63,460 nucleotides of DNA from an uncultured Dehalococcoidia bacterium (GTDB taxonomy: Bacteria > Chloroflexota > Dehalococcoidia > SM23-28-2), in assembly GCA_964512285.1 (NCBI GenBank), contig CAZEJO010000001.1, positions 45,784-109,243 of the forward strand. Reading direction: 5' to 3'. Below are positions 25,239 to 51,323 of this stretch, piece by piece. The stretch's first letter is position 1. Each line of letters begins with the position of its first letter. Position numbers and translations under genes: made by a program. Under the pieces are notes generated by a model. That model saw only the letters and a list, made by a program, of their open reading frames with translations, was not told the DNA's origin and did no database searches.

Positions 25239-25264
25239 CCTAGCCTCTCCTCCCACCAATAAGA

Positions 25265-26584: not shown

Positions 26585-26794
26585 CCTAGTCCCTCCTCTC
26601 CCGCTCAGAAAGATTGCTTGCTCTTGAAGAAGGGGCGTAGAGGCTACCGAACGGCAGTAATAGCTTCTTCCAGGGACATATATAACACACAGATGTCAAT
26701 AGGCCAAGCTGAAAGGCGGAGTGGTTGCAGGTGGGCGCCGGGTTGCGGAGGAGGGGCGGGCTGACAGCAAGGGAAGAATGCAGGAAGGCCTGGC

Positions 26795-26824
26795 TTGACC
26801 TACTACTCGTGGCAACCCTATGAT
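26795..26824 (+). promoter_or_regulatory. Candidate sigma-70 promoter for the AOR gene (TTGACC-N18-TATGAT)
   Basis: TTGACC at 26795-26800 and TATGAT at 26819-26824. It would give a ~90-nt leader before ATG 26920. Confidence 0.3.
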
Positions 26825-26919
26825 TATCGACGCTGAGACCGTCGTGGTCTGGTCACATCTTGGTCGGCTGCCAGCGCGCCTGGCGGCGTTTGCGTATATA
26901 GAGAACGGAGCACTGGGGA

Positions 26920-28773
26920 ATGCTAAACAAGGCCATCAACGGCAAGATCCTCACCGTGAATCTTAGCTCGGGTGCCATCGAGGCCGAGTCCTTGCCGGAG
27001 GAGATGTACCGCCGCTACATCGGCGGCTACGGCCTGGGTGCCCGCTTGCTCTTTGACCGCATTCCTCAGGGTGCTAAGGCGCTGGGTCCAGACAACATTC
27101 TCGGCTTCTTCCCCGGCCTCCTCACCGGCACTCCCCTGTTCGGGAATCGCTATCAGGCCGTCGCCAAGTCGCCCAAGACCGACGGCTGGGGCGACGCCAA
27201 CGGCGGCGGCGATTTCGGCCCCTTCTTGAAGCATGCCGGCTGGGACGGCCTGCTGGTCAGCGGCATATCGGACAAGCCGGTCTATCTCGTCATCGAGGAT
27301 GAGAAGGTCGAGGTCAAGGACGCAGGCGACCTCTGGGGCCTGGACGCCATCACCACGGAGGTCCAGCTCAAGGAGCGCCACGGCAAGAAGGCGAGCGTGG
27401 CCTGCATTGGCCAGTCGGGGGAGAATCTCTCCTACATGGCTGGCATCTGCAACGAGTATGGTCGTCTGGCCGCCCGCAGCGGACTGGGTGCTGTGATGGG
27501 CTCCAAGAAGCTCAAGGCCGTCGTAGTCCTGGCTTCCCGCAACATCCTGGCCGGCGATGACGCGAGCGTGCGCAGCTTGGTGCGCACGTCCGTAGACGAG
27601 TTCGGGCCGGTTGCCGCCTTCTTCCGCGGCTTTGGCACCACCGGCGTCACCGCCACTTCAGCCGTCACGGGCGACTCGCCGGTGAAGAACTGGGGCGGCG
27701 TTGGCACTGTTGACTTCCCGACGGCGCCACAGCTCGCTGGCAACAAGTTCAACGCCAAGATGGATAAGACCTACGGTTGCTGGCATTGCCCCCTATCTTG
27801 TGGTGCTGAGAGCAAGGAATCTGACAACCCCAAGTTTCCCTATCCGAAGGGCACTCATCGGGCGGAATATGAGACGGCCAGTGCCTTCGGCAGCTTGACT
27901 CTTAACGCCGACATCGACTCGCTGCAGTGCGTCAACCACCTCTGCAATGCCTACGGCCTGGACACCATCTCTGCCGGCGCCACCGTCGCCTTCGCCATCG
28001 AGTGCTATGAGAACGGCCTCATCAGCAGCGAGGACACAGATGGCCTGGAGCTGACCTGGGGCAACGCTGAGGCCATCGTGGAGATGGTCCATCGGATCGG
28101 CAAGCGAGAGGGCTTAGGCGACCTCTTTGCCGATGGTATTCGCAAGGCCGCCCAGAAACTGGGCCCCAAGGCAGAGCCTTTCGCCATGGAGGTGGGTGGT
28201 GAGGAGCTGCCCATGCACGAGGCCAGGCTGCAGCCGGAGTACTTCACTACCTATAAGCTGGACCCGACTCCCGCCCGCCATACTCAGTACCCGAGTGCTA
28301 TTGCGCCCGACTGGGGTGTGCCGTCTGCGCCGAAGGATCGAAATGAGGCCAGCGGCCGCGCTCTGCACCACAAAGGCATCTCCGAGTTTCAGCACATCGT
28401 CAACAGCATCGGCACGTGCATGTTCATCACGTTTGCCGGCCCCGACCAGCGCATTCCCGAGTGGGTCAACGCCGTCACCGGCTGGGATACCACCCACCAG
28501 GAGCTGCTCAAGACGGGCGAACGCATCGCGAACCTGCGGATGGCCTTTCAGGTGCGAGAGGGGGACAACCCTGCCCAGCGTCGCATCCCTGGTCGGCTCA
28601 TCGGCAGCCCGCCGTTGGAAGGGGGGCCGCACGCGGGTGTAAGCCTGGACGCGGAGACCATGCAGCGCGAGTTCCTGGCCGCCTGCGATTGGGAGCAGCA
28701 GACCTGCGTGCCCAGCCGAGCCAAGCTGGAGGAGATGGGTCTTCAAGACGTAGCCGACGTTCTATACAAATAG
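26920..28773 (+). CDS. aor: Aldehyde:ferredoxin oxidoreductase (tungstopterin AOR family)
   Basis: 617 aa. AOR N-terminus GKILTVNLSSGAIEAESLPEE..YIGGYGLGARLL. [4Fe-4S] ligands in YGCWHCPLSCG (CxxCxxxC). Confidence 0.9.
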   Translation: MLNKAINGKILTVNLSSGAIEAESLPEEMYRRYIGGYGLGARLLFDRIPQGAKALGPDNILGFFPGLLTGTPLFGNRYQAVAKSPKTDGWGDANGGGDFGPFLKHAGWDGLLVSGISDKPVYLVIEDEKVEVKDAGDLWGLDAITTEVQLKERHGKKASVACIGQSGENLSYMAGICNEYGRLAARSGLGAVMGSKKLKAVVVLASRNILAGDDASVRSLVRTSVDEFGPVAAFFRGFGTTGVTATSAVTGDSPVKNWGGVGTVDFPTAPQLAGNKFNAKMDKTYGCWHCPLSCGAESKESDNPKFPYPKGTHRAEYETASAFGSLTLNADIDSLQCVNHLCNAYGLDTISAGATVAFAIECYENGLISSEDTDGLELTWGNAEAIVEMVHRIGKREGLGDLFADGIRKAAQKLGPKAEPFAMEVGGEELPMHEARLQPEYFTTYKLDPTPARHTQYPSAIAPDWGVPSAPKDRNEASGRALHHKGISEFQHIVNSIGTCMFITFAGPDQRIPEWVNAVTGWDTTHQELLKTGERIANLRMAFQVREGDNPAQRRIPGRLIGSPPLEGGPHAGVSLDAETMQREFLAACDWEQQTCVPSRAKLEEMGLQDVADVLYK

Positions 28774-28798
28774 GGGAATCCATAAAGGGAGGTCGAAC

Positions 28799-30118
28799 AT
28801 GAGAGTTGGGCATGTTGTGGCGGTATCAGGCAAAACCATCGTCCTGCTTCTGGCCTGCGTGGTTCTCGCCGCCTTGGCAGTGGCCTGTGGGGGGGAGAAA
28901 GAGGAGACTTCTACCCCCGGCGGCACGCCCACAGTCGGCGCGACCGGCACGCCTGCCACCACGACGGAGGCGCCGGGTATTACGGACACAGAGATACTCC
29001 TGGGAGCGGATGTGCCCCTCACTGGGGCTATGGCTGCGGTCTTCGCCACGATCCCTCAGGCCACGGAAGCCTACTTCAACTACATCAACGACACCCAGGG
29101 AGGCGTCTGCGGTCGCAAGATCGTCTACAAAGTAGTGGACAATCAGGACGACACGGCCAAGGGCATGGAGGCGGTGCGAAAGCTGGTGGAACAAGATGAA
29201 GTGTTCGCCATCGTCGGCTCCCTAGGCGATACTCCCCATGCCGCCGTCTGGGAGTACCTGAACGAGGATGAAGTGCCCGACATCTTGTGCTCCGCGGGGT
29301 CTCACATGTTCGGCTCTGACCCCGAGGGGTACCCCTGGACCGTCCAGATGATCCCCAGCTACAGGGCTGAGGGGGAGACCTTCGGTCAGTACATCTCGGA
29401 GAACCTGCCCGGCAAGAAGGTGGCTGTCCTCTACCCGAATAACCAACAGGGCGCTGATCACCTGCAAGGGGTAAAGGATGGGCTGGACCCCGATAAGAAC
29501 GAGGTCGTCTCGGAACAGAGCTACGAGGTCACGGCGGTCTCCGTCGCCTCCCAGGTCAACAACTTGGCGAACTCCGGCGCCGAGGTGATCACCACCGTTG
29601 CCACTCCCGGCTACACGGCTCAGGCCGTTAAGCAGGCCGAGCGTCTGGGCTGGGAGGCCCAGTGGTTCTTGAGCTACATCAATTCCGACCCCATAATCTT
29701 TCAGTTCGTCTCGGCCGAACTCCTGGAGGGCGCCATAACTGGCCAATCCTACAAGTTGGCAAACTGGACTGACGACCCAGCCGTAGCCGAACACTACCGG
29801 ATCATGCAGGAGTACGGTGGCCCCTCGCCCACCAACTTCACTATCTATGCCCAGTCACTGGGAGAAGTGGCTGTGGAGATACTCAGCAGGACCTGTGACA
29901 ACCTGACTCGCGAGGGACTGATGGACTCTCTCGAGTCCCTCCAGGACTACCACAGCGACCTGCTCCTGGACGAAGTCAACATCACCTTCAGCGACACTGA
30001 CCACACGGCTATCCAAACCAGCAGGATGCTGAAGCTGGTCTTGGAGGATGGCAAGGGCGTGTGGGAATACTTCGGCCCAATACGGGAATACACGGAAAGC
30101 GAACTCCTGGAGGACTAG
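28799..30118 (+). CDS. LivJ-type substrate-binding lipoprotein, paralogue C
   Basis: SD AGGGAGG. Lipobox LAVAC. YFNYINDTQGGVCGRKIVYK. Confidence 0.85.
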   Translation: MRVGHVVAVSGKTIVLLLACVVLAALAVACGGEKEETSTPGGTPTVGATGTPATTTEAPGITDTEILLGADVPLTGAMAAVFATIPQATEAYFNYINDTQGGVCGRKIVYKVVDNQDDTAKGMEAVRKLVEQDEVFAIVGSLGDTPHAAVWEYLNEDEVPDILCSAGSHMFGSDPEGYPWTVQMIPSYRAEGETFGQYISENLPGKKVAVLYPNNQQGADHLQGVKDGLDPDKNEVVSEQSYEVTAVSVASQVNNLANSGAEVITTVATPGYTAQAVKQAERLGWEAQWFLSYINSDPIIFQFVSAELLEGAITGQSYKLANWTDDPAVAEHYRIMQEYGGPSPTNFTIYAQSLGEVAVEILSRTCDNLTREGLMDSLESLQDYHSDLLLDEVNITFSDTDHTAIQTSRMLKLVLEDGKGVWEYFGPIREYTESELLED

Positions 30119-30223
30119 AGCCCAACCACAGCGTGTAGTCCGACTCGGTAGGGCGTACCTTTCCAGGATTCACTCTCCACGGATGCTGGAAGAGCAGTCT
30201 TATTGGTAGGAGGAGAGGCTAGG

Positions 30224-31534
30224 ATGAGACGCAAGCAGATGATGACTCTATCAGCCAAAGTCAGCGCTTCGTTGGCCGTTCTGCTCCTGGCATGCCTGGT
30301 GGCAGTCCCCCTACTGGGCGGCTGCGGGGACGAAGGAGAGGAGGCTCCTACCCCTGCCGGCACGCCCACAGCCGGCGCGACCGGCACGCCTGCCACCACG
30401 ACGGAGGCGCCGGGCATCACGGACACGGAGATAATCCTGGGAGCGGATAACATTCTCAGTGGCGGCATGGGGGCGGTCTACGCGACGCTCACCGATGCCA
30501 CAAGGGCCTACTTCGATTACGTTAATGACACCGAGGGGGGCGTCTGCGGGCGGAAGATCGTCTACAAGGTGGAGGACAACCAGGACGACCCGGCCAGAGG
30601 TCTGGAGGCGGTGCGCAAGCTGGTGGAGCGCGACAAGGTGTTCGCCATGGTCGGCTCCCTGAGCGAAGCTGCCCATCCCGCCGTTTGGGAGTACCTGAAC
30701 GAGAAGGGCGTGCCCGACCTGTGCTCTGCCGGAAGCGACATGTTCGGCGCTGACCCCCAGGGGCATCCATGGACTGTCCAGATGATCCCCAGCTACAAGA
30801 GCGAGGCCGCGGTCTTCTTCGGCCGGTACATCTCGGAGAACCTGCCCGGCAAGAAGGTGGCTGTGCTCTACCCGAATATCCAGCAGGGCTTCGACCACCT
30901 GGCAGGGGTGAAGGAGGGCCTGGACCCCGATAAGAACGAGATCGTCTCGGAGCAGACCTACGAGGTCACGGACATCTCTATCAGTTCCCAGGTGAGCAGC
31001 ATGAAGAACGCCGGCGCCGAGGTGGTCACCACCATTGCCACTCCTCCCTTCACCGCTCAGGCCATTCAACAGGCCGACCGTCTGGGCTGGCATCCCGACT
31101 GGTTCTTGAGCTACATCAATTCCGACGAGATGATATTTCAGTTCGTTTCGCCCGAGCTACTGGAGGGCGCCATTAGCGACCAGGCCTTCAAGCTGGCGAT
31201 CTGGACCGATGAGCCGGCCATAGTCAAACACCATGAGATCATGCGAGACTACGGCGGGCCGTCGCCCTCCAACTTCAGCCTCTATGCCCAGGCGCTGGCA
31301 GAAGTGGCGGTGGAAGCGCTCGGCAGGACCTGTGACAACCTAACGCGGGAGGGGTTCACCGATGCGCTGGAGTCCATCAAGGACTATCACAGCGACCTGT
31401 TCCTGGACGACGTGAACATCTCCTTCTCTGAAACCGACCACACGGGCCTGGAAAGCGGCCACATGCTCAGGGCTACCGTGGAGGACGGGAAGGGCAAGTG
31501 GGAGTACTTCGGCCCACTATATGAGTACCGGTAG
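30224..31534 (+). CDS. LivJ-type substrate-binding lipoprotein, paralogue D
   Basis: The start was set at ATG 30224 with SD GGAGGAGAGG. Lipobox LLGGC. YFDYVNDTEGGVCGRKIVYK. Confidence 0.85.
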   Translation: MRRKQMMTLSAKVSASLAVLLLACLVAVPLLGGCGDEGEEAPTPAGTPTAGATGTPATTTEAPGITDTEIILGADNILSGGMGAVYATLTDATRAYFDYVNDTEGGVCGRKIVYKVEDNQDDPARGLEAVRKLVERDKVFAMVGSLSEAAHPAVWEYLNEKGVPDLCSAGSDMFGADPQGHPWTVQMIPSYKSEAAVFFGRYISENLPGKKVAVLYPNIQQGFDHLAGVKEGLDPDKNEIVSEQTYEVTDISISSQVSSMKNAGAEVVTTIATPPFTAQAIQQADRLGWHPDWFLSYINSDEMIFQFVSPELLEGAISDQAFKLAIWTDEPAIVKHHEIMRDYGGPSPSNFSLYAQALAEVAVEALGRTCDNLTREGFTDALESIKDYHSDLFLDDVNISFSETDHTGLESGHMLRATVEDGKGKWEYFGPLYEYR

Positions 31535-31614: not shown

Positions 31615-32520
31615 TTAGTTGGCAGTGACTGGCTGTGGTGACGGGAGGGCAAGGTCGTGGTGGTTCTCTGAGCGGAGTGTCTCCCAGGCCCACTGCAGCA
31701 CCGCTGCCACTACCCTGGGGTCGAACTGTGAGCCAGCGTTGCGCTCGATTTCCTCTATCGCCTGGCTATGCGAGAGGGCTGGGCGGTACGGGCGATCGGA
31801 GGTCATCGCATCGTAGGCATCGGCCACCGCGAACACGCGTGCAGCAAGGGGTATGTCGTCGCCGGCAAGGCCGCGCGGGTAGCCCTTGCCGTCGAAGCGT
31901 TCGTGATGGCAGTAGACAATCTCGGCGACTTGGTCGAGGAAGGCATCCCCGCCTACTATCGAACGTCCGTAGGCTGGGTGGCGCCTCATCTGTTCCCATT
32001 CGGTGACAGACAGGGGGCCTGGCTTCGTAAGGATGTCGTCGGCCACGCCAAGTTTGCCCACGTCGTGCAGAAGAGCAGCCCACTTTAGGTGCTGCATTTC
32101 GTCATCAGACATGCCCAGTCGCTGCCCTAGCTGCATAGCGAGGTCGGCGACCCGCGCAGAGTGGCCACCGGTAATCCCGTCCCTCAGGTCGAGAGCCGAG
32201 AACATAACTTGCCAGAGGGACTCGTAGTTCTCCTCCACCTCCTGTATGTAGAGGGTGCTCTGGCGAAAGCGGGAGGTGAGGATTAGCGCTTGGCCAGCGG
32301 CAGTGAAGGCCAAGATACCCAAGAGTGCCAGGAGAGCTGCGCTGGCGGCGTAGTTCATAGGGTTCGGTTCTTGCCATATCAGGAACGTGGCTATGATGGC
32401 GCTTGTCGTGATAGCGCCGGTGATCCATAACCAGCGCAGGTGGGGGCTGGCAGAATCGAGCCGCGTTTCGATCCTCGTGGTGACGCGTCGCGTCTCTGCG
32501 GAGCGAAGCTTGCTTCCCAT
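31615..32520 (-). CDS. Membrane-anchored HD-GYP domain protein (c-di-GMP phosphodiesterase family)
   Basis: N-terminal TM helices. HSARVADLA..LLHDVGKLGV..HHERFDGKGYPRGL. Confidence 0.85.
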   Translation of the reverse strand: MGSKLRSAETRRVTTRIETRLDSASPHLRWLWITGAITTSAIIATFLIWQEPNPMNYAASAALLALLGILAFTAAGQALILTSRFRQSTLYIQEVEENYESLWQVMFSALDLRDGITGGHSARVADLAMQLGQRLGMSDDEMQHLKWAALLHDVGKLGVADDILTKPGPLSVTEWEQMRRHPAYGRSIVGGDAFLDQVAEIVYCHHERFDGKGYPRGLAGDDIPLAARVFAVADAYDAMTSDRPYRPALSHSQAIEEIERNAGSQFDPRVVAAVLQWAWETLRSENHHDLALPSPQPVTAN

Positions 32521-32721: not shown

Positions 32722-33891
32722 CTAGCCGCGTGGTAGGTCCAGGCCGCGCGTGGCGATGATGTTCCGCTGGATCTCATTGCTGCCAGCGTAGATGGTCACG
32801 CCCATTGTCCACAGGTACTCGTATTCAATGACACCATTCAAGGCGGCTCGCTTCGATTCCTCTGCCAGTTGGCCATATAGACCCAGGAGATGCATGCCGA
32901 AGTTGGCTACTCGCTGCTGGAGCTCGGTGGTGAAGGTCTTGGCTACCGAGGACTCGTAACTGGGCATGAGGCCACGACTTGCCATCCACACGATACGATG
33001 GCTGAGGAGTTGGGCAACTTCCATCTCGATGGTCAGTTCGGCCAGCTTACCGCCGACCAGCGGGTCTTTAATAAGGGGCTGGCCATTCCGCTTGGTCTCT
33101 TTAGCGAACTCCACAAGGCGCCGGAGAATCTCACGGCTCTCGACGACATAGGAACCAATGGCGGATCGCTCGAAGGCTAGAGTGGTGAGGGCCACGTGCC
33201 AGCCCTCGTTCTCCTTGCCCACTCGGTTGCTCTTGGGCACGCGCACGTTGTCGAAGTAGACCTCGTAATAGTCGGCCTTCCCCGTCATTTGGATGATAGG
33301 ATTGATGCTGACGCCAGGAGATCGCATGTCTACCAGGAGGTAGGAAATGCCGCGGTGCTTTGGTGCCTGGGGGTCTGTTCTGACCATAAGGTGTATCCAG
33401 TCGCCGTGATGACCTCTGGTGCACCAGGTCTTCTGTCCGTTGACTACGTAGTCATCGCCATCGACCACTGCGCGAGCCTGGAGGCTGGCTAGGTCAGAGC
33501 CGGCATTGGGCTCGCTGAACCCCTGGACCCAGACAACCTCACTGCGGGCTATGGGCGGCAGGAAGCGTTTCTTCTGATCTTCAGTACCGTAGGACATCAG
33601 GCACGGCCCCACCATGTACACACCCTGGCCGTCTACGACGGGCGCGTGGGCAGCGGCCATTTCCTCCTGGAACACCATTCGGTGCATGTGGCTCGCGCCC
33701 AGGCCGCCGTATTCCTTGGGCCAGGCCATGCAGAGCCATCCCTTGGCACCGAGCTTCTTCTCCAGCTCCTTGGCTGCATTCCAGTGCTCGGGATTGTCTA
33801 GATCGTAGTCGGTGAGAGCCCACTCCTTCTGAAGGAACTCTCTTACCTCTTTGCGGAATGCTTCTTCTTCTTCGCTAAACCGGAAGTCCAT
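32722..33891 (-). CDS. Acyl-CoA dehydrogenase family protein
   Basis: 389 aa ACAD fold (EEEAFRKEVREF..GFSEPNAGSDL..IYAGSNEIQRNII). Confidence 0.85.
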   Translation of the reverse strand: MDFRFSEEEEAFRKEVREFLQKEWALTDYDLDNPEHWNAAKELEKKLGAKGWLCMAWPKEYGGLGASHMHRMVFQEEMAAAHAPVVDGQGVYMVGPCLMSYGTEDQKKRFLPPIARSEVVWVQGFSEPNAGSDLASLQARAVVDGDDYVVNGQKTWCTRGHHGDWIHLMVRTDPQAPKHRGISYLLVDMRSPGVSINPIIQMTGKADYYEVYFDNVRVPKSNRVGKENEGWHVALTTLAFERSAIGSYVVESREILRRLVEFAKETKRNGQPLIKDPLVGGKLAELTIEMEVAQLLSHRIVWMASRGLMPSYESSVAKTFTTELQQRVANFGMHLLGLYGQLAEESKRAALNGVIEYEYLWTMGVTIYAGSNEIQRNIIATRGLDLPRG

Positions 33892-34211: not shown

Positions 34212-34637
34212 GTGGGGGAAACTATGAAGAGCTACACTGAATACCTGTGGTTCGATACGGGGACGCGACGCGATCTGGCGAACATCACCAGCGAGGTCGA
34301 CACCATACTTCACAAGTCTGGCGTTCAGGAGGGCTTTTGCCTGGTGAGCGCGATGCACATCACCGCTGGCATCTGGGTCAACGACCACGAAGAGGGCCTG
34401 TGGCAGGACTTCTGGGAGTGGCTGGAGGGGCTTGCCCCGTATCGGAAGGACTACAAGCACCATCGCGGTGGCGAGGACAACGGCGACGCTCACCTGAAGC
34501 GGTCGTTGATCCACCATCAGGTCGTGCTGCCCGTCACCGCGGGCAAGCTTGACTTGGGGCCGTGGGAGCAGGTCTTCTACGCCGAGTTCGACGGCCAGCG
34601 CCGCAAGCGGGTAGTACTCAAGGTCATCGGCGAGTAA
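34212..34637 (+). CDS. yjbQ: YjbQ/UPF0047 family protein (secondary thiamine-phosphate synthase family)
   Basis: 141 aa. [65 protein letters not shown]. Confidence 0.8.
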
Positions 34638-34707
34638 CCACCAGAAGCTGATATAATGGGTTTACGTAGCTGCGGCCGATGAGCGTGGTCGTGGCAGGGA
34701 AGAATCA

Positions 34708-37092
34708 GTGATAGCCAGCTCTATCGTTTGCTCTCCCTCTCCGTCTCTCTCGCCGCGGGTTCGCCGCCTGCGGCAGGAGTTCTTTTCCTTTTGCTCGCGG
34801 GACTACTTCCGCAACGAGGTGCGCCCCTATACCAGCGGTTTGCCCTGGGATGCGGTCTGGTCGCCTCATAGCTGGACCGTCGTCCCCGAGCTGTATCCTT
34901 TCCTGGACGCCTACCAGGACAGCCTGCTGGCCGCCGCCGAGAACGTGGAGCTTCCCGCGGGCTTCTGGCGGGAACCGCTCGTCGTGCGACGGGCTCTCTT
35001 CTTCCAGACGGTTTTGGAGAGGCACCTGCCGGTCAAGATCCTGGATGGAGAGCTAATCGTTGGCTCTTACTTCAATACTGCCCTGTCCAAGACGCACACC
35101 AGGCGAGAGGGGCGGCGCTGGAAAAAGATGGTCGGGCGCTCGCTTCGGGAGGCGAGGGAGCTGAATGGCCTGGGCGTCGGCAACTGCGGCGCTGTGCCCG
35201 GCCACATCATCCCCAACTACCCGAAGGTGCTGCGGCTCGGCTTTCGAGGGATCGTGGCGGAACTGGAGGAGAAGCTTCAACGAGCGCGAGGCAGGAAGAG
35301 GAAGGACTTCCTGCGGGCCCTGATCATCTCCTGCCAGGCGGCGGCGGTCTTTGCCTCGCGCTACGCAGCCGAGGCCGAGCGGCTGGCGGCGGAGGAGCCT
35401 GATGAGAGCCGCCGTGAGGAGCTGCAGCAGATCGCCACCATCTGCCGCAAGGTGCCCTGGGAGCCGGCCCAATCCTTCCGCGAAGTGCTGCAAGCCCTGT
35501 GGTTCAGCCACATGCTGGTGATGGCAGCGGAATCGTATCCTGGGGCTGGCCTTTCTCCCGGCCGCATCGACCAGTATCTCTACCCATACTATCAGCGCGA
35601 CATCGATTCGGGGCAGATGACGCGCGACGGGGCGCGGGAACTGCTTGAGTGCTACTGGATCAAGCACAACTACGCCTATGACTACCAAGGGCGAGTGGGG
35701 ACCAACCAGGGGATCAGCTCCGGCTTCGGCCAGCTTGTCACTCTGGGCGGTCTGGGCCGCGAGGGCGAGGACGCCAGCAATCCTCTCACCTGGCTCATGC
35801 TGGACGTGATCGAGGACATGAACCTTCTGGAGCCAAAGCCCAACGTTCGCCTTCATCACAACACGCCCGACGACCTACTCGAGCGGGTGGTGGAGCTTAT
35901 CGCTGGGGCGCAGGGCTCCCCCTTCCTTCTCAACTTCGACGAGGCTGCCATACGGGGACTCGAATGGCAAGGGTTGCCCAGGGGCGAGCTCTGGGATTAC
36001 GCGCCGGTCGGTTGTCTGGAGAACACCCTGCAGGGCAACGATCGGTCAGGCACGGTGGATGTCAACCTGAACATCGCCAAGGCGGTGGAGCTGGCTCTGA
36101 ACGACGGCAGGGAGATGCAGACAGGCAAGCGGCTCGGCCCAGGCACAGGCAATCCCAGGGGCTTCGCCGACTTCCTCGCCTTCTTCGCTGCCTTCAAGGC
36201 TCAGCTTAAGGCGCTCCTGGAGCGGCTGATCGACTGCAACAATGGGGCCGATGCCATCCGCGCGGCCCTGGAGCCCACGCCCTACCTGAGCGTGCTGGTG
36301 GACGGCTGCGCCGACAGCGGCCGCGATATCACCGCCGGCGGGGCGGTCCACAACTACATCACGGTCGAGGGCATCGCCCTGGCCACAGCCGTGGACTCCC
36401 TGGCGGCTGTCAAGAAGCTGGTCTACGAGGACAAGACGGTTAGCATGGACGAGCTGCTGACGGCCATCCGTGCCAACTTCGAGGGGCACGAGGCGCTGCG
36501 CCAGACGCTGGTCAACAAGGCGCCGAAGTTCGGCAACGACGACTCGTATGTGGATGAAATCGCTCGGGAGGTGTCCCAGTTCTGGACGGAGGAGGCTTTC
36601 AAGCACACCTCGCCGGCCAGCGGACGGCGCTATCGGGGAGGCTACCTCTCCTGGAACTACTGGGTTGCTTATGCTCCCTCCACGGCCGCTACCCCGGATG
36701 GGCGCAAGCGGGGCACCTTCCTATCCAACGGCGTCTGCCCGGTCAACGGCGCCGACCGCCAGGGCCCCACAGCGGTCATCAAGTCGGTGGGCCACTTGGG
36801 GCTGGAGACAGCTCCCAACGGCGGCTCACAGACCCTGAGTCTCAGCCCCTCCATGGTTCGGGACGCCGAGCATCGGGCTAAGCTGGCCGCTCTGCTGCGG
36901 GCCTATGGTCGAGTCGGCGGCACCTGCCTCCAGATCAATATGGTGGACCCCGCCACCCTGCGGGCGGCCCAGACCGATCCGGAGACCTATCGCAATCTGC
37001 TGGTGCGGGTGACCGGCTACAACGCCTATTTCGTAATGCTGGGGAAGGAGATCCAGAACGAGATCATTGCCCGTGAGGCGCATGGAGTCTAG
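34708..37092 (+). CDS. Glycyl radical enzyme (PFL2/glycerol-dehydratase-like family), substrate unknown
   Basis: 794 aa with a GTG start after AGGGAAGA. Glycyl motif LLVRVTGYNAYF (Gly770 = nt 37015-37017). Cys loop YAPVGCLENT (Cys436 = nt 36013-36015, Glu438). Family motifs PGHIIPNY and SPGRIDQYLYPYY. Confidence 0.9.
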   Translation: MIASSIVCSPSPSLSPRVRRLRQEFFSFCSRDYFRNEVRPYTSGLPWDAVWSPHSWTVVPELYPFLDAYQDSLLAAAENVELPAGFWREPLVVRRALFFQTVLERHLPVKILDGELIVGSYFNTALSKTHTRREGRRWKKMVGRSLREARELNGLGVGNCGAVPGHIIPNYPKVLRLGFRGIVAELEEKLQRARGRKRKDFLRALIISCQAAAVFASRYAAEAERLAAEEPDESRREELQQIATICRKVPWEPAQSFREVLQALWFSHMLVMAAESYPGAGLSPGRIDQYLYPYYQRDIDSGQMTRDGARELLECYWIKHNYAYDYQGRVGTNQGISSGFGQLVTLGGLGREGEDASNPLTWLMLDVIEDMNLLEPKPNVRLHHNTPDDLLERVVELIAGAQGSPFLLNFDEAAIRGLEWQGLPRGELWDYAPVGCLENTLQGNDRSGTVDVNLNIAKAVELALNDGREMQTGKRLGPGTGNPRGFADFLAFFAAFKAQLKALLERLIDCNNGADAIRAALEPTPYLSVLVDGCADSGRDITAGGAVHNYITVEGIALATAVDSLAAVKKLVYEDKTVSMDELLTAIRANFEGHEALRQTLVNKAPKFGNDDSYVDEIAREVSQFWTEEAFKHTSPASGRRYRGGYLSWNYWVAYAPSTAATPDGRKRGTFLSNGVCPVNGADRQGPTAVIKSVGHLGLETAPNGGSQTLSLSPSMVRDAEHRAKLAALLRAYGRVGGTCLQINMVDPATLRAAQTDPETYRNLLVRVTGYNAYFVMLGKEIQNEIIAREAHGV

Positions 37093-37164
37093 GTCGTTGA
37101 CGGGTGCGCCTTAGCGGGTCGGTGGGCCGAAGAGACGGCTGCAATCGCTAAAGGAGGAGAAATC

Positions 37165-38400
37165 ATGCTGGATGCTGTGCTGAGTGAGGAGCAGAAGAAG
37201 CTGCGGGATGAGGTGCGGGTTTTCGTGCGCGATGATGTGCCGCGCCAGCTCATCCTGGACATGGATGCCGAGCGGGTGCACTATCCCCGCCAGTTCCTAG
37301 AAGCGGCCGCCCGCCGCCGGCTGCTGGGCCTGCGCTTCCCGGAGGAATACGGCGGCCGGGGGTTGGGTTGGGCAGACGAGGTGGTGGCCCTGGCGGAGGT
37401 GGGTATGGTAGGAGGCTCGCTGAGCTGTCTCTACTCTCTCGTCAGCATCGTCGGTGAGGCATTGCACGTCTTTGGCACGCCGGAGCAGAAGGACAGGTGG
37501 TTGCGTCCAGCCCTCGAGGGCAAGCTCACCGTGGCCGAGGCCCTCACCGAGCCGCGGGGCGGCTCCGACTTCTTCGGGGCGACGACCACAGCCCGACGCG
37601 AGGGCGATGTCTACGTGCTCAACGGCCAGAAGCGATTCATCGTGGGCGCCGAGGGGGCTGACTACTTCCTGGTGTATGCGCGCACCAACCCCGACGGCTC
37701 CTCGCGCGAAGCGCTCAGCGCCTTCATCGTCGAGAAGGGGCCCGGCGTCGAGGTTCAGCACGTCTATGGGCTGCTGGGCACGCGCGGCGGTGGCGCCGGG
37801 CGGGTGTACTTCCGGGACGTCGCCGTGCCCAGGGAGAACCTCATCGGCCGGGAGCACGGCGGGGCCGAGGTCTTCTATCAGATGATGATCCCGGAACGGA
37901 TGACCAGTGCGGCAGGCGCGCTGGGTGGGGCGCAGGCTGCTCTGGAGATCGCCGCCCGCTACAGCAACCAGCGCAAGGCCTTCGGCCGGAAGATCCGCGC
38001 CTTCGAGGGGGTTAGCTTCAAGGTGGCCGACAGCATTACTCTCCTCGACGCCAGCCGGGGGCTGGTCGATCTCGTCGCCCGTTGCATCGACGCTGGCGAC
38101 GAGCCGGGCCGCGCCCGCCGCCTGGTGTCCGAGGCCAAGAAGTTCGCCACCGAGGCAGGCTGGGAGATCATCAACCACGCCATGCAGATCATGGGCGGCA
38201 TCGGCTACACCAACGTCTATCCCATTGAGCGACTGCTCCGCGACGCGCGGTTGACCATGATCTGGACTGGCACCAGCGAGATCATGAATCTCATCATCCA
38301 GCACGAGTACTATCGTGAACTGGGACTCCCCTGGCAGGGCCGCGACGTAGAGGCCGATGCGCCGGAGGCGGATCAACTCGAAGAAAAAGTGTACGAGTGA
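37165..38400 (+). CDS. Acyl-CoA dehydrogenase family protein (between the GRE and its activase)
   Basis: 411 aa ACAD fold ([38 protein letters not shown]). SD AAAGGAGGAG. Confidence 0.85.
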
Positions 38401-38403
38401 ACT

Positions 38404-39327
38404 ATGCCCACCGGCATCACCTTCAACGTTCAGAGGTTCAGCACCGAGGACGGGCCGGGCATCCGCACCACCGTCTTCATGAAGGGCTGCCCCCTGCGCT
38501 GCAAGTGGTGCCACAACCCGGAGGGACTCTCTCCCCAGGCGGAGCTGGTGTGGTACGACGTGCGCTGCGTCGGTGCCCGCGAGTGCCTCACGGTCTGTCC
38601 CGACGACGCCCTGGAGCTGACGCCGGAGGGGATGCGCCTGGATAGGGAGCGTTGCACAGTGTGCGGCTTGTGCGAGGAGGCCTGCCCCGCAGGCGCTCTG
38701 GAAGTGATCGGAAGGGAGTGGACAGCCGAGACGCTCTACGCCGAGGTGGCCAAGGACAGCGCCTTCTACGAGACGTCCAGCGGAGGCGTCACGGTATCGG
38801 GCGGCGAGCCCATCATGCAGGCCGAATTCGTCGAGGCCTTTCTGAGCCTTTGTCGGGAAGGGGGAATACATACTGCCCTGGACACCTGCGGCCACGCCGA
38901 CTGGGGGGTCTACGAGCGGCTTCTCCCCTTCGTCGACCTCGTGCTCTACGATCTGAAGATCATGGACAGGGAGCGGCATCGGGAGGCTACCGGCGTCTAT
39001 CCGGACCGCATTCTGGAGAACGCCAAGCGCATCGCCCAGAAGGGGACTCCGATATGGGTGCGCACGCCGATCGTTCCCGGCTACACCGACGATGAGGACA
39101 ACATCGCCCGCCTGGCCGCCTACATCCGCGACGAACTGAGCACCGTCGAGCGCTGGGACCTGTTGGCCTACACCAACCTTGGCCAGCCCAAGTATTGTCG
39201 TCTGAGCCGGCCTTACGCTCTGGAAGACGCAGAGCTGCCGACTCGAGCCAAGATGGAGCGGCTACAGACGGTGGCCCTGCGAGGCGGAGCGGACGTCGCC
39301 GTGTGGTCGGGAGCGGTGCGGGACTAG
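38404..39327 (+). CDS. Glycyl-radical enzyme activating protein (radical SAM, with ferredoxin-like insert)
   Basis: FSTEDGPGIRTTVFMKGCPLRCKWCHNPE, plus CVGARECLTVCP and CTVCGLCEEACP clusters. Starts 3 nt after the ACAD stop. Confidence 0.9.
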   Translation: MPTGITFNVQRFSTEDGPGIRTTVFMKGCPLRCKWCHNPEGLSPQAELVWYDVRCVGARECLTVCPDDALELTPEGMRLDRERCTVCGLCEEACPAGALEVIGREWTAETLYAEVAKDSAFYETSSGGVTVSGGEPIMQAEFVEAFLSLCREGGIHTALDTCGHADWGVYERLLPFVDLVLYDLKIMDRERHREATGVYPDRILENAKRIAQKGTPIWVRTPIVPGYTDDEDNIARLAAYIRDELSTVERWDLLAYTNLGQPKYCRLSRPYALEDAELPTRAKMERLQTVALRGGADVAVWSGAVRD

Positions 39328-39345
39328 GAAGCGTGGGGAACGAAT

Positions 39346-40158
39346 GTGGCTGACGTCGGTCTGAGCCCAGCCATCGTCGAGGCCCTGGCGGGTGAGAGGA
39401 CGCCGAAGTTCTTGGCCACCCTCAACGGCGAGGGCGTGCCCAACGTGGTGCCTATCATCTCGTTACAGGCGGCGGACGAAAGCACTGTCATCTTCGGCGA
39501 GTTCATGATGTGGAAGACGAGGCGCAATCTGGAGGTGAATCCCCGCGTGTCCGTGGCGGTAATGACGCACAGCCAGGGCTGGGTCATCAAGGGGGACTTC
39601 CTGGAGTTTCAGCGGAGCGGGCCCTACTTCGACCAGATCATGGCCACGGACACGTTCCGCTACAACGCCTATGCTGGCATCCGCAATGCTGGGGTGATTC
39701 GAGTGGGGAGCGTGGTGCGGGCCTTCGCCTTATCGCGGCTCACGGTTCTGTCTGACATGGCCCGCGCCAAGTGGTTCGCCCGCCGTGCTCGCAGACGGGG
39801 CGTCGACGGAGTCACGGTTCCTATTCAGGTGCGGCAGAAGTTCGCTCGCCTTCAGGCCGCCAAGTTCCTAGCCTATCTGGACGGCGATGGCTACCCGGAC
39901 ATCGTGCCGGTTCTCTCCCTCATACCGGCTGATGAGCAGACATTCGTCTTCAGCGGCGGCCCGGCGGAGTCGCCCTTGGTAGCGCTGAGCCCCGGCGCAA
40001 AGGTGGCGGCCTCGGTGCTCACCTTCGAGCCGGTGGCCTACCAGATAAAGGGCGAATTCCTGGGGACAGAGCGGAGCCTGGGGCGATTGGCCGGGGTGGT
40101 CGGCGTCCAGGAGGTATACAGCGCCTCGCCGCCGCTTCCGGGCCAGCGGATCGCTTAG
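39346..40158 (+). CDS. Tandem split-barrel (pyridoxamine-5'-phosphate-oxidase-like, FMN-binding) protein
   Basis: Two similar halves (KFLATLNGEGVPNVVPIISL.. and KFLAYLDGDGYPDIVPVLSL..). GTG start 18 nt after the activase. Confidence 0.55.
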   Translation: MADVGLSPAIVEALAGERTPKFLATLNGEGVPNVVPIISLQAADESTVIFGEFMMWKTRRNLEVNPRVSVAVMTHSQGWVIKGDFLEFQRSGPYFDQIMATDTFRYNAYAGIRNAGVIRVGSVVRAFALSRLTVLSDMARAKWFARRARRRGVDGVTVPIQVRQKFARLQAAKFLAYLDGDGYPDIVPVLSLIPADEQTFVFSGGPAESPLVALSPGAKVAASVLTFEPVAYQIKGEFLGTERSLGRLAGVVGVQEVYSASPPLPGQRIA

Positions 40159-40193: not shown

Positions 40194-42425
40194 CTATACT
40201 TTTTGGGCTGTTGTGGAATCGCCCAGTTTGGCACTGTAAAGGGAAATGTCTGCCAATCTCAGCAGGTCGTCGTCGGTGGTGGCGTCATCGGGGTAGCAAG
40301 CTAGCCCAGCGCTCACGCTCAGGTCAGCCGCGGCGGGATCATTCAGTTCCTTGAGCTTGTTGGCCATGGATTTCCCTATCCGTCCGAGTATGACCTGGGC
40401 CCGATTCAGGTCGGCGTGCATGAATATGGCGGCGAACTGGTCGTCACTGTAGCGACAGGCAATGTCTGAACGGCGCATCTGTGAGCGGATGGAATCAGCA
40501 GCAAAGCGGAGTATCTTGTCGCTTGCTGCCTGCCCCTGAGCTTCGCTATAGCTCTCGAAGTTGTCGATGTCGGCGATCATCAGCACAAGGCCGTGGTCGT
40601 AGCGCTTGGCACGTTCGAGCTCCTCGCCCAGTCGCTGATGAAAGTAGGCGCGGTTATGCAGACCTGAGAGCTCGTCGGTGATCGGCCTCAGTTCTGTCTC
40701 CGCTCGCAGGATAAGGTTCTCCAATGGCGGAGCAACCTGAGCAGCAGCGGCCTGGAGGAGGTCCAGGTCTGGCGCCTGGAAGGAGGAGCCCTTCGAAAAG
40801 GTGATAAGCACCAGGCAGCCGAAGGGCCTTTCGCTGATGCCCAGAGGCGCACACACGATGCTTTGGGGTACGCTAGATTCCTCGGTGGATTGTTTGAGAA
40901 GCTCGTCACCCTGAGGGCCGAGACCTCCCGCTGCTTCAAGCTGCTCCATCGAAGAATACACCTGGGTTTCGCCTGACCTGAAAGCCTCGCCGATCAGGTT
41001 CTCGCCGGACTTGACTACCAGCTTGGACATCACCTGCTGGTCGAGACCGCGCACAGCGCGAACCTCTAGCAGGTCTCTATGCCGGTTGTGGGCCATAAGG
41101 AACCCGGCCTCCGTTCGCGGCAGGAGTTTGAAGATGGCTTTCAGCGCTCTGGCAGCCGCCTCGTCAAAGTCGATAGCTGTGGCAGCGGCGTTCGATAGGT
41201 TGAGGAAAAGGTGAAGCTGGTCTTCGCGCTGCCGCACCTCCTTGACGAGGTGACTGATCATTGTGGTATCTCGGGCTGTGCCTTCAATGGCCACCAGGTG
41301 GTCATCCTCATCGTAGGCGGGCAAGAAGCTGAATGTCAGCCATATTGTATGGCCGTCCTTATGCAGGCACTTCAGGGCTATCGGACCTTCAGGCATGTTA
41401 CCGGAAAGCATGGCCTTCCATACGCTGACGAAGGACTGCCAATGGTCGGGGTGGACAAGCCGACCGACGATCTCCGGGCCGGAGGCTAGCTGCTCCAGGG
41501 TAAAGCCCGTCACCCTCTCCCAGATCGGGTTGGCGTATGTAAGGCCCTTCTGGATGTCTACGCGGAACACCAGGTCAGCGGTACGTTCCACAAGTTGGCG
41601 ATATCTTTCCTCAGATCTGGTGGAGCCTGTCGCGGCCGTTTCTTTGGCGAGCAGGGCGACGATCATCCGGTCGAAGTCTCTGGCGAGGGACTCGAACTCT
41701 GGCGTCCCCGATATTTGGGGCCTTGTGGCGGTATCTCCGCTGGCAATCGCCCTGGCGCTCGCCCGGAGTGATGCCAGCGGTCGAAGGATGCTTCGCGTCA
41801 GCGTCAGCGTCGCCCAGACGCCGACGCTGAAGACGAGGCCGGCGGAACCCAGTAGGACCCAAAGCAGTAGGTCTCCGTCGCTAGCCGTCGCAGGGAGGGC
41901 GATGTCCATCTGGTGCTGCTGTTCGCTGATCAGCTCGGCGACCACCGGCCTCAGGCTGGCGATGGCGTCTTCTACCTGGGAGCGGGCCGTCGTCGCCTGG
42001 TCGTCAGCGCCGACCTCTGTGAACAGGAACGCCCCTTCGCCCTGCACCTCGATCTCCTGAGTGTGTCTAGCGATGTCGTCTAGTGCAGCCAGCGTTTGGG
42101 GGGCAGCGGGGTCGCTTTGCAGGGCTTTGGCCTCCTCGACATTCTCCTTAACCCGAGCAATTGACTCACGGAACGTATCGGCAAAGCTCCAGTCGTTGGT
42201 GACGGGGAAGGCCCGCAGGGTCTCGAGCTGGAGGGTGAATTCGGCATCGATGTCGCGCAGGGCGGCGGTTGTAAGGGAGGTTCTCTCTATGGCATCCACG
42301 TCGACTTGGCCGGCCTGATCGTCCCCAAGGCGGAAGACGGATATCAGGCAGACGCCAATGAGGAGCAACGTGAACAGTGAAAACGTGGCGATGATCCGTG
42401 CCCGCACCGATCGCAGACCAGGCAT
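40194..42425 (-). CDS. Membrane sensor: TM-sensor-TM, HAMP-like, PAS, GAF and a degenerate GGDEF domain
   Basis: The start was set at ATG 42425 (MPGLRSVRARIIATFSLFTLLLIG). The GGDEF position reads SDDQF (nt 40434-40448). RRSD (nt 40464-40475) is at the I-site position. Confidence 0.8.
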   Translation of the reverse strand: MPGLRSVRARIIATFSLFTLLLIGVCLISVFRLGDDQAGQVDVDAIERTSLTTAALRDIDAEFTLQLETLRAFPVTNDWSFADTFRESIARVKENVEEAKALQSDPAAPQTLAALDDIARHTQEIEVQGEGAFLFTEVGADDQATTARSQVEDAIASLRPVVAELISEQQHQMDIALPATASDGDLLLWVLLGSAGLVFSVGVWATLTLTRSILRPLASLRASARAIASGDTATRPQISGTPEFESLARDFDRMIVALLAKETAATGSTRSEERYRQLVERTADLVFRVDIQKGLTYANPIWERVTGFTLEQLASGPEIVGRLVHPDHWQSFVSVWKAMLSGNMPEGPIALKCLHKDGHTIWLTFSFLPAYDEDDHLVAIEGTARDTTMISHLVKEVRQREDQLHLFLNLSNAAATAIDFDEAAARALKAIFKLLPRTEAGFLMAHNRHRDLLEVRAVRGLDQQVMSKLVVKSGENLIGEAFRSGETQVYSSMEQLEAAGGLGPQGDELLKQSTEESSVPQSIVCAPLGISERPFGCLVLITFSKGSSFQAPDLDLLQAAAAQVAPPLENLILRAETELRPITDELSGLHNRAYFHQRLGEELERAKRYDHGLVLMIADIDNFESYSEAQGQAASDKILRFAADSIRSQMRRSDIACRYSDDQFAAIFMHADLNRAQVILGRIGKSMANKLKELNDPAAADLSVSAGLACYPDDATTDDDLLRLADISLYSAKLGDSTTAQKV

Positions 42426-42586
42426 TAGTCTGCCAACCTTTCCCCAACTACAACGAACTGCCTGCCACCCTCCGCTCGCCTCATGTGGCGGTTTGGAGGC
42501 CGTATAACAACAGGTCAATATCCTTTGCTGTGCTAAATGAATTGACGCTAGTCCAGGTCAGTCCGTTACATATAGGACGACCACGG

Positions 42587-42623: not shown

Positions 42624-42695
42624 GGGCTCGTAGCTCAGCGGCAGAGCGGCCGGCTCATAACCGGTTGGTCGCAGGTTCGAATCCTGCCGGGCCCA
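42624..42695 (+). tRNA. tRNA with CAT anticodon (elongator Met, or Ile2 if lysidine-modified); CCA not encoded
   Basis: Hand-folded. Acceptor GGGCTCG/CGGGCCC (one G.T pair), D arm GCTC-AGCGGCA-GAGC, anticodon arm GCCGG-CTCATAA-CCGGT, T arm GCAGG-TTCGAAT-CCTGC, discriminator A. The 1:72 pair is G:C, so it is not an initiator. Confidence 0.85.
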
Positions 42696-46525: not shown

Positions 46526-46530
46526 AGGCG

Positions 46531-47895: not shown

Positions 47896-47943
47896 CTCGA
47901 ACAGATTATCGCATGTTGGGGCAAGGACGGCCAGTGCGAGGGG

Positions 47944-48756: not shown

Positions 48757-48812
48757 GGCGATAGACCTGCATTATCGGATCGGAGGCGACAAAACGCAAC
48801 CCCCGGCTCGAG

Positions 48813-51320: not shown

Positions 51321-51323
51321 GGC

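Follow-up and report, generated by a model that had tools for sequence, protein, structure and literature searches.

A Clade of Cys-x-Glu Glycyl Radical Enzymes with a Tandem Split-Barrel Protein as Near-Obligate Partner

Introduction

Which reaction is catalysed by a glycyl radical enzyme (GRE) whose gene is followed by that of an acyl-CoA dehydrogenase (ACAD), and which of the neighbouring genes belong to it? This question is raised by a gene cluster at positions 34212-40158 of a 63,460-nt stretch of DNA from an uncultured Dehalococcoidia bacterium (contig CAZEJO010000001.1). The whole stretch is called the window in the following, and all coordinates are window positions unless a locus is named. 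An original prediction, made from the letters of the window, described an uncharacterised GRE with an ACAD between it and its activase and suggested a CoA-thioester-linked or fatty-acid-derived substrate. Our analysis revealed that the conserved unit consists of the GRE, its activating enzyme and a tandem split-barrel protein of 270 amino acids (aa). The GRE class itself is known. New is a GRE of the CXE type (active-site motif Cys-x-Glu) with a private active site and a near-obligate split-barrel partner.

Results and Discussion

The GRE Belongs to an Uncharacterised Clade

The GRE (794 aa) is encoded at 34708-37092 on the plus strand and matches the Pfam families PF02901 (493 bits) and PF01228 (88 bits). 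Its GTG start codon at 34708 is credible, since relatives are conserved from residue 2 onward. The radical S-adenosylmethionine (SAM) activating enzyme of the GRE (activase) is found at 38404-39327 (plus strand; TIGR02494, 341 bits at a cutoff of 174; Radical_SAM and Fer4 domains) and is followed at 39346-40158 (plus strand) by the split-barrel protein, which resembles PNPOx, HupZ and FMN-binding proteins and carries PF01243 in its N-terminal half. The ACAD between GRE and activase occupies 37165-38400 (plus strand; PF02771, PF02770, PF00441). A YjbQ/UPF0047 gene at 34212-34637 (plus strand; PF01894, TIGR00149) opens the array, and a second, PimC-like ACAD is transcribed divergently at 32722-33891 (minus strand; three ACAD domains; TIGR03204, 295 bits at a cutoff of 624). 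These six open reading frames (ORFs), the gaps of 70, 72, 3 and 18 nt along the plus-strand array and the divergent spacer of 320 bp agree exactly with the original prediction. Its domain assignments were confirmed by Pfam and NCBIfam, and both ACADs possess all three ACAD domains. The hallmarks it had named are likewise present in the translations: RVTGY with Gly770, VGCLE with Cys436, and Glu438 in the GRE, and the CX3CX2C motif (C29x3C33x2C36) plus two Cys-rich motifs with Fer4 matches, corresponding to two ferredoxin-type clusters, in the activase.

Comparison of the GRE with the NCBIfam equivalog models missed every cutoff. It scored 528 bits with the model of the PFL2/glycerol dehydratase (GD) subfamily TIGR01774 (cutoff 678), 463 bits with the HypD model NF043068 (1100), 452 bits with the HpsG model (1000) and 394 bits with the CutC model TIGR04394 (1050). 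Among proteins of known structure the highest scores were obtained for CutC (429 bits; 5FAU, 9F3W), GD from Clostridium butyricum (425 bits; 1R8W/1R9D) and the GRM3 propanediol dehydratase (PD; 389 bits; 9RCO), followed by Archaeoglobus fulgidus PFL2, also called PflD (387 bits; 2F3O), HypD (377 bits; 6VXC), HpyG (362 bits; 8ID1) and HpzG (355 bits; 8IOF). The scores for MasD (264 bits), BssA/TutD (212 bits) and pyruvate formate-lyase (PFL; 91 bits) were far lower. In MAFFT alignments the GRE was 37.1% identical to GD, 36.1% to CutC and 34.2% to HypD, and these three enzymes share 33-39% identity with one another. The 89 full-length relatives of the window GRE were 49-94% identical to it, with a median of 60%. 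Since the identity to each characterised enzyme is about that among the characterised enzymes themselves and the identity within the family is higher, the family forms a clade of its own. By its sequence, the window GRE is thus a member of a large, uncharacterised clade, which is probably isofunctional. The predicted uncharacterised GRE with eliminase-type hallmarks is borne out by these values.

Many relatives with 65-92% identity are found in the protein database under the label "PFL family" or under automatic names only, and an exact-sequence look-up of the window GRE gave no record. A GRE review of June 2026 lists no such enzyme and describes whole clades, archaeal ones especially, as lacking validation; among the PFL-like GREs, those of characterised function all come from bacteria (PMC13450708).

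The distribution of the family was derived from scans of species-representative genomes. All loci come from metagenome-assembled genomes (MAGs), and the clade is abundant in those from sediment and the subsurface, spanning more than 10 phyla including the Asgard archaea. Bacterial hosts are Dehalococcoidia, Anaerolineae and other Chloroflexota, Actinomycetota (Candidatus Geothermincola, Candidatus Solincola), Planctomycetales, Phycisphaerae, Delta-/Thermodesulfobacteriota, Myxococcota, Spirochaetes and Hydrogenedentota. Archaeal hosts are Bathyarchaeia and Thor-, Hod-, Heimdall- and Promethearchaeota. Loci are referred to by L numbers where they have to be told apart. One contig labelled Acidobacteriota (JAIVWR010000010.1; L001/L051) carries the whole cluster with 87-94% protein identity to Dehalococcoidia loci and is probably mis-binned.

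GREs of sediment lineages and Asgard archaea that lie outside all characterised groups were noticed by Dombrowski et al. in 2018 (PMC6258724). Zhang et al. modelled Hermod- and Thorarchaeota GREs on A. fulgidus PflD in 2021 and named them alkyl-/benzylsuccinate synthases (Ass/Bss) (PMC8163825). Old Woman Creek MAGs are the source of some Thorarchaeota loci in our set (L021, L025). The retrieved Asgard GREs are of the CXE type, are far closer to the eliminases than to MasD or BssA and stand without small-subunit genes. If the published sequences fall in this clade, their assignment to hydrocarbon activation is unlikely to be right; the Asgard homologues have probably been read as hydrocarbon-activating enzymes.

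The Active Site Differs from Those of the Known Eliminases

Conservation was counted over the 89 full-length family sequences, and residues were mapped by alignment to the structures of GD, HypD and CutC. At least 97% conservation was found at 194 of the 794 positions. The Cys loop Cys436-Leu437-Glu438 (36013-36021, plus strand; codon of Cys436 at 36013-36015) aligns with C433/E435 of GD, C434/E436 of HypD and C489/E491 of CutC, and Cys436-x-Glu438 is invariant (89/89). The same holds for His166 (35203-35205, plus strand; 89/89), the equivalent of GD His164. Gly770 (37015-37017, plus strand), also invariant, aligns with GD G763, HypD G765 and CutC G821, and formation of the glycyl radical at this residue is predicted from motif and alignment. 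The fold, the Gly loop, the Cys-x-Glu motif and the His164 equivalent are shared with GD and PD. The loops themselves bear marks of the family: RVTGYN replaces RVAGYS of the reference enzymes, Thr769 and Asn772 being family-specific for Ala and Ser, and the Cys loop continues as GCLENT, with N439 and T440 invariant, where CutC has GCVEPQ.

All characterised eliminases and isomerases keep the CXE motif, with the Glu hydrogen-bonded to the substrate (PMC13450708). Because this motif is retained throughout the family, the GRE would act as an enzyme of the 1,2-eliminase/isomerase type.

The substrate-contacting residues lead away from each of the three reference enzymes. From the diol-binding set of GD (H164, S282 and D447, with Y339 and Y640) only the His is retained as H166; S282, Y339 and D447 correspond to the family-invariant G281, G341 and V450, and Y640 to L647. 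As a further difference, the window cluster contains no aldehyde/alcohol dehydrogenase or microcompartment genes. HypD, HpyG and HpzG are CXE eliminases that act on a hydroxylated amino acid, and in their operons the GRE is followed by an imine reductase. The hydroxyproline-binding residues D278, S334, F340, Y450 and T645 of HypD are replaced by P/A280, N/S337, L343, N453 and W649, the last three being invariant in the family. The CutC choline residues F389, F395 and Y506 correspond to the invariant G335, G341 and N453, and only CutC Thr502, which contacts the substrate hydroxyl, has an identical and likewise invariant counterpart (Thr449); for CutC D216 the alignment gave no reliable mapping. 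D451, N650 and Y651 are invariant and specific to the family. Three Gly residues in place of bulkier ones, together with this polar and aromatic set, suggest that the predicted pocket is larger and polar.

The archaeal-lineage PFL-like GRE of A. fulgidus also carries CXE, and its function is debated, with no substrate assigned. In the alignment it has a GD-like Asp after the Cys loop, in contrast to Val450 of the window family, and the review mentions no split-barrel partner for it (PMC13450708).

These data bear on the possibility that the family is a divergent, isofunctional version of a known eliminase (GD/PD, HypD/HpyG/HpzG, CutC or a sulfonate lyase) or an alkyl-/benzylsuccinate synthase. 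Its top PDB and NCBIfam similarities are indeed to these eliminases, the automatic annotation of JGI labels one homologue as trans-4-hydroxy-L-proline dehydratase, and Hermod- and Thorarchaeota GREs carry the Ass/Bss names given by Zhang et al. (PMC8163825). However, the scores stay under every equivalog cutoff, including that of the HpsG model (452 versus 1000 bits) for the sulfonate C-S lyases IslA/IseG/HpsG, which anchor the sulfonate by an Arg/Gln/Arg triad and were compared by score, and the contact residues of GD (S282, Y339, D447), HypD (D278, F340, Y450, T645) and CutC (F389, F395, Y506) are replaced. An X-succinate synthase (Bss/Ass/Mas) is opposed by the retained CXE motif, by scores of 264 bits for MasD and 212 bits for BssA/TutD compared with 425-429 bits for the eliminases and by the absence of small Fe-S subunit genes among the neighbouring ORFs of at least 60 aa. 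Thus, a known activity is highly improbable. The comparison of substrate contacts that the original prediction had proposed, done here by alignment to GD, HypD and CutC, therefore shows the substrate residues of none of these three enzymes kept as a set.

A Tandem Split-Barrel Protein Is the Conserved Partner

For a comparison of gene neighbourhoods, 46 GRE-anchored loci were searched by tblastn with every protein of the window, and a codon-usage-based gene caller with subsequent clustering was applied. Greedy longest-ORF calling had picked antisense ORFs in high-GC DNA and was replaced by a codon-usage score trained for each locus. This caller missed the partner gene in L065, L071, L087 and L109, where it is found by tblastn.

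Of the GRE-anchored in-family loci, 34 extend far enough downstream to show the partner, and 33 of them have the split-barrel gene beside the GRE gene. In the sole exception (L004), activase and partner are located elsewhere on the same MAG chromosome (L052). A reverse scan anchored on the partner yielded 77 new loci; it was seeded with an alignment of five bacterial sequences, which biases it to bacterial-type proteins, as a diverse alignment of 13 partner sequences was too variable to seed a genome scan. An in-family GRE with 59-94% identity to the window GRE (59-77% beyond the lineage of the window) was found in 58 of these 77 loci. One further locus carries a divergent GRE (39%), and of the remaining 18 loci 11 are cut by contig ends. 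The divergent case is L062 (3071-4870 of the locus), in which a split-barrel gene is paired with a GRE only 39% identical to that of the window; the partner family may therefore reach into a sister GRE clade. The distant GREs of L043 and L044 have no split-barrel gene alongside.

In most loci the activase adjoins the GRE, with gaps of typically ~15-50 nt, and no conserved extra small genes (ORFs of at least 60 aa) were detected in the module. The Asgard loci contain GRE, activase and partner among unrelated housekeeping genes, and for this reason the three-gene unit appears self-sufficient. The conserved unit thus consists of the GRE, the activase and the 270-aa tandem split-barrel protein. 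The original prediction had treated the latter as an accessory, whereas it is a near-universal partner; the flavin-type redox partner that it had foreseen is supported in so far as the gene, flavoprotein-like according to its model, is part of this unit.

A model of the partner was built with AlphaFold2 using 34 homologues (pLDDT 87). It consists of two beta-barrel halves, in agreement with the predicted tandem, although Pfam detects the first half only. In Foldseek searches each half matched HupZ (5ESC), the FMN-binding protein Swol_0183 and the Desulfovibrio vulgaris FMN-binding protein with a probability of 1.0. Further matches were the prenyl-FMN maturase PhdC and the F420-dependent proteins MSMEG_3380 and Rv2074, and the TM scores of the halves against split-barrel structures were 0.69-0.78 on the target. 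The family profile matched HupZ with an E value of 1.8e-9. Together with PF01243, this fold places the partner in the split-barrel superfamily. The match to F420-PPOX models was weak (28 bits at a cutoff of 79). The known split-barrel proteins are single-domain homodimers, whereas the partner joins two halves covalently, of which the second is degenerate, and it is set apart by its near-obligate GRE linkage and by two invariant segments. These segments, R105-Y-N-A-Y109...R113 and a C-terminal PPLPGxR, are of low confidence in the model and predicted to be flexible. No conserved Cys is present.

Two other interpretations of the partner were discarded. Two-domain PilZ proteins (YcgR, MrkH, VCA0042), tempting because of the GGDEF and HD-GYP genes flanking the cluster, gave TM scores of ~0.3 with rmsd values above 15 Å. 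A link to haem was weighed from the similarity to HupZ and from Ahb/Hem genes that lie 20 kb upstream and near L048. It was set aside, as the Ahb/Hem linkage occurs in two Dehalococcoidia loci only. A tetrapyrrole would moreover seem too large for the buried active site of a GRE.

Accessory subunits of GREs are known from HPAD, BSS and MASS only (PMC13450708). Like the partner, these are extra polypeptides encoded beside the GRE, and they are required by it. They are small 4Fe-4S (HiPIP-like) or rubredoxin-like proteins of decarboxylases and X-succinate synthases, whereas the partner is a Cys-poor split-barrel protein that accompanies a CXE-type GRE. No paper linking a GRE with a protein of the split-barrel or PNPOx kind turned up in our literature search. 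Among GREs, a conserved flavoprotein-like partner is without precedent.

What could such a partner do? It might be a dedicated low-potential electron donor, a surrogate of flavodoxin that reduces the [4Fe-4S] cluster of the activase and has no part in the substrate chemistry. The small D. vulgaris FMN-binding electron-carrier protein is among the best fold matches, the partner gene usually follows the activase gene directly, and in L052, L072, L093 and L102 both stand together with no GRE nearby. Moreover, the activase of Escherichia coli PFL requires flavodoxin (PMC13450708). That flavodoxin, however, is a general one, the only activase reductant named in the review, which describes no cluster-encoded donor (PMC13450708). 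In L048/L049 the start of the partner gene overlaps with the stop of the GRE gene, the activase being encoded elsewhere, and L111 and L119 are similar, so that the partner stays at the 3' end of the GRE gene rather than with the activase. The activase itself bears two ferredoxin-type clusters for electron entry. Taken together, a pure donor role appears unlikely, though it deserves serious consideration.

The same stop/start overlap in L048 and the near-obligate co-occurrence would also fit a new non-catalytic or regulatory subunit of the GRE, which gates a channel, holds the radical domain or protects the radical. In the model, the flexible invariant segments RYNAY...R113 and PPLPGxR resemble interaction loops, and the known small subunits govern radical-domain movement and substrate access. 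Yet all of these are HiPIP- or rubredoxin-like iron proteins of GRE classes unrelated to the eliminases (PMC13450708), and the split-barrel protein has no conserved Cys. We consider such a subunit quite unlikely.

The Acyl-CoA Dehydrogenase Is a Lineage-Specific Addition

The ACAD between GRE and activase, the defining component of the cluster in the original prediction, was followed in the same way. The order GRE-ACAD-activase is retained at GRE identities of at least 87% (L001-L004, L045, L050, L051, L053, L055, L128) and lost at 77% or less, where the activase follows the GRE directly or other inserts stand between them. At 77% identity (L005, L006, L026) a creatininase-family gene occupies the ACAD slot; in L020 and some other Anaerolineae it is a C69/AAT-like Ntn hydrolase or an adenosine-deaminase-family gene. 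Most lineages have no gene between GRE and activase. The predicted synteny therefore stood among the closest relatives and failed beyond them.

A scan anchored on the ACAD yielded more than 555 relatives, including sequences from cultured Firmicutes. Of the 78 best loci newly fetched (64-92% ACAD identity; hosts including Desulfosporosinus, Carboxydothermus and Desulfofundulus), 75 had no GRE within 7 kb and three had one. The neighbourhoods of these orthologues are heterogeneous and gave no clue to a substrate. An ACAD dedicated to the GRE is thus ruled out. Because its orthologues are mostly GRE-free and stand in varied contexts, the ACAD is a common enzyme that was recruited locally, a lineage-specific accessory. 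The YjbQ gene is likewise restricted to the close relatives of the window cluster (class-A Dehalococcoidia loci), as is the divergent ACAD, in which YAG replaces the YEG motif. Consequently, three genes were added in a single narrow lineage of the Dehalococcoidia: the ACAD in the GRE-activase slot, YjbQ and the divergent ACAD. Our literature search found no paper tying a GRE to an ACAD within one unit.

The ACAD at 37165-38400 is nevertheless a regular member of its family by sequence, with three domains and a candidate catalytic Glu, although the base lies off the MCAD position. The motif IWTGTSEI has Thr at the place of the catalytic Glu of Bcd (IYEGTSEV), and in the alignment to Bcd a Glu within "IPER" is found at the helix-G position. 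Both motifs are retained in most of the orthogroup. We take the Glu to stand at the position of Thr255 in medium-chain acyl-CoA dehydrogenase (MCAD), that is, in the arrangement of Glu254 of isovaleryl-CoA dehydrogenase (IVD) and Glu261 of long-chain acyl-CoA dehydrogenase (LCAD), and the Thr at that of MCAD Glu376. In having a helix-G Glu and no MCAD-type Glu the ACAD resembles the IVD/LCAD type. Its scores with IVDs (197-198 bits with 4o5m/4kto, 188 bits with human IVD 1ivh) are lower than that with Bcd (223 bits), and its orthogroup spans many phyla in varied contexts.

ACAD-family genes do recur near the module. They were found within three genes of it in 23 of 102 unique loci, and orthologues of the window ACAD adjoin the module at three positions in three phyla: in the Dehalococcoidia, upstream in Planctomycetales (L080/L101) and downstream in Geothermincola (L010). 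An acyl-CoA synthetase is encoded at several Anaerolineae loci, and the Actinomycetota loci have a divergent ACAD-like gene directly upstream of the GRE as well as two ACADs and an enoyl-CoA hydratase. Because of this recurrence an acyl-CoA step downstream of the GRE is plausible in some lineages.

Does the GRE itself act on a CoA or ACP thioester or a fatty-acid-derived compound, with the ACAD as an integral part of the catalytic unit, as originally suggested? The recurrence just described and the enzyme with thiamine pyrophosphate (TPP) dependence added in L053 and L055 could be read in this way. On the other hand, an ACAD is missing from the vicinity of the module in ~77% of the loci, among them all those of Asgard archaea, and the ACAD orthogroup is overwhelmingly independent of GREs. 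The invariant active-site residues placed by alignment are polar or aromatic (mostly Asn, Gln, Asp, Thr, Tyr, Trp and Gly), and no conserved basic residue appears to be available for the nucleotide diphosphate. The terms "acyl-CoA" and "CoA thioester" do not occur in the 2026 review, which thus describes no thioester-acting GRE (PMC13450708). The suggested substrate class is left unsupported by these data, and we regard it as very unlikely.

Some loci show further variants of the cluster. A TPP-dependent enzyme (567 aa) and a DAO-family FAD oxidoreductase (453 aa) are encoded on the same strand between the split-barrel and GGDEF genes in L052, L053 and L055; L001/L051 have the DAO-family gene only, and the window cluster has neither. 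On the chromosome CP070630.1 (Dehalococcoidia bin98), which carries L004 and L052, the cluster is split: GRE and a truncated ACAD are at 2.01 Mb, activase, split-barrel and GGDEF genes at 0.61 Mb, and a second ACAD copy (76% identity) at 0.67 Mb (L136). The split reflects either a genuine rearrangement or an assembly error. In Actinomycetota (L011-L019, L036, L042, L047) a conserved larger cluster surrounds the module. Genes for an enoyl-CoA hydratase, two ACADs, a ThiS-like protein, an amine-oxidase-type FAD enzyme, a B12-binding radical SAM protein and a truncated ACAD-like protein precede GRE, activase and partner; a DAO-like FAD enzyme, a protein of ~390 aa with no Pfam match and the Rnf complex follow. 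B12-binding radical SAM genes also stand after the module in L084, L088 and L126.

Proposed Function of the Three-Gene Unit

We propose that the family comprises a new GRE of the 1,2-eliminase/isomerase type for a polar, hydroxylated and probably nitrogen-containing substrate, coupled to a flavin- or deazaflavin-dependent protein. We assign this reading a probability of about one half. The activase would install the radical on Gly770, from where it would pass to Cys436. The Cys436 thiyl radical would then take a hydrogen atom next to the hydroxyl (or amine) group of a small polar substrate, while Glu438 deprotonates or hydrogen-bonds this group, assisted by His166, Thr449 and Asp451. Cleavage of a C-O or C-N bond would expel the vicinal leaving group, in the manner of 1,2-eliminases and isomerases, and give a carbonyl, imine or enamine. 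The split-barrel protein would bind one flavin-type cofactor, FMN or possibly F420, and perform a neighbouring redox step, in the simplest case reduction of the unsaturated, imine, enone or aldehyde product. HypD followed by pyrroline-5-carboxylate (P5C) reductase offers an analogy for such a sequence, with the difference that P5C reductase has a Rossmann fold, unlike the split-barrel protein that is the candidate reductase of the window. ACAD, enoyl-CoA hydratase and acyl-CoA synthetase could then channel the carbon skeleton into acyl-CoA metabolism in some lineages. F420 is plausibly available to the partner, as the window encodes CofC and CofD ~10 kb from the split-barrel gene; the host probably makes this cofactor.

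The nature of the substrate is suggested by genes inserted within the module operon in various lineages. They encode M24, M28 and C69-like peptidases, creatininase-family and adenosine-deaminase-family hydrolases, a class-III aminotransferase, FAD enzymes of the amine-oxidase or DAO type and, in L053 and L055, the TPP-dependent enzyme. The recurrence of such genes suggests a substrate that carries nitrogen and a hydroxyl group and is set free from peptides or amides. Peptidase genes near the GRE in some loci are also a point of likeness to HypD loci. LivJ-type binding proteins and an aldehyde:ferredoxin oxidoreductase encoded upstream in the window are compatible with a nitrogen compound. Small PD-(D/E)XK_3 genes are a different kind of insert, seen inside the operon of two Anaerolineae loci (L067, 2414-2941; L127, 5421-5972).

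Several points weigh against this proposal. Substrate, product and cofactor are all proposed from sequence and context, and the pocket residues were placed by alignment to three structures, none of them of the window enzyme. The Asgard units sit among housekeeping genes, so that only bacterial loci, most of them from Chloroflexota, contribute to the nitrogen theme. Some adjacency is expected by chance, since the genomes are rich in peptidases, ACADs and CoA ligases. As to the partner, its closest sequence relative HupZ binds haem and not flavin, no cofactor motif can be recognised in its second barrel and its WKT motif is not strictly invariant. Finally, it could be the activase, and not the pathway, that the partner serves.

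A bolder reading would make the system the first flavin- or F420-coupled GRE, in which the split-barrel protein is obligatory as an electron source or as a new class of subunit and the substrate class is new. In the electron-source variant, a net-reductive radical reaction would take place within the complex, comparable to class III ribonucleotide reduction but with a small molecule as substrate. We think this reading unlikely.

The family is one among many unannotated GRE clades and stands out by its breadth, which includes the Asgard archaea, and by its new partner. Its CXE type, its private set of invariant active-site residues and its three-gene unit make it experimentally tractable, and they would correct the ecological inference drawn from the Ass/Bss names. 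The split-barrel partner could reveal a new coupling of glycyl radical chemistry to redox cofactors.

Genomic Surroundings of the Cluster

The cluster is flanked by the gene of an HD-GYP domain protein (31615-32520, minus strand; PF13487) and by that of a HAMP-PAS-GAF-GGDEF protein (40194-42518, minus strand; Pfam), which is convergent and marks the 3' end of the array; both are conserved in class-A loci. A tRNA gene (42624-42695, plus strand; 71.6 bits) lies just past the GGDEF gene and is the sole genuine Rfam match in the window. The Rfam scan of the leader gave no riboswitch or other RNA signal beyond a sub-threshold Mn riboswitch match of 13 bits, and promoter and terminator scans remained at chance level.

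Upstream of the cluster the window encodes six LivJ-type binding proteins plus the aldehyde:ferredoxin oxidoreductase. The latter and two Peripla_BP_6 solute-binding proteins are found at 26920-31534 (plus strand), and two further Peripla_BP_6 proteins at 23898-26584 (minus strand), all assigned by Pfam. The four Peripla_BP_6 paralogues thus stand around the oxidoreductase (23898-31534), with no ABC permease or ATPase genes adjacent. This arrangement also occurs in L002 and L050. This context suggests a possible functional tie to the GRE cluster.

The cofC (49654-50301) and cofD (50298-51320) genes for F420 biosynthesis are located beside a nitroreductase-family gene (48813-49436) in a minus-strand group at 48813-51320. 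They belong to a region (46000-56000) with a GC content of 67-71% and a GC skew of 0.11-0.25, compared with roughly 59-65% GC in most of the window. Housekeeping-like genes are found there, coding for MgsA, an alpha/beta hydrolase, CofCD, MutS2-Smr, an AMMECR1-LigB fusion and SelA. At the other side of the cluster, a haem biosynthesis gene cluster at 7565-17094 (minus strand) comprises a radical SAM gene, HemB, a CobA-HemD fusion and HemA. It also contains an unusual fusion of 794 aa, in which two AhbA/B-like modules (NirDL HTH plus AsnC_trans_reg2) are joined to a class-III aminotransferase.

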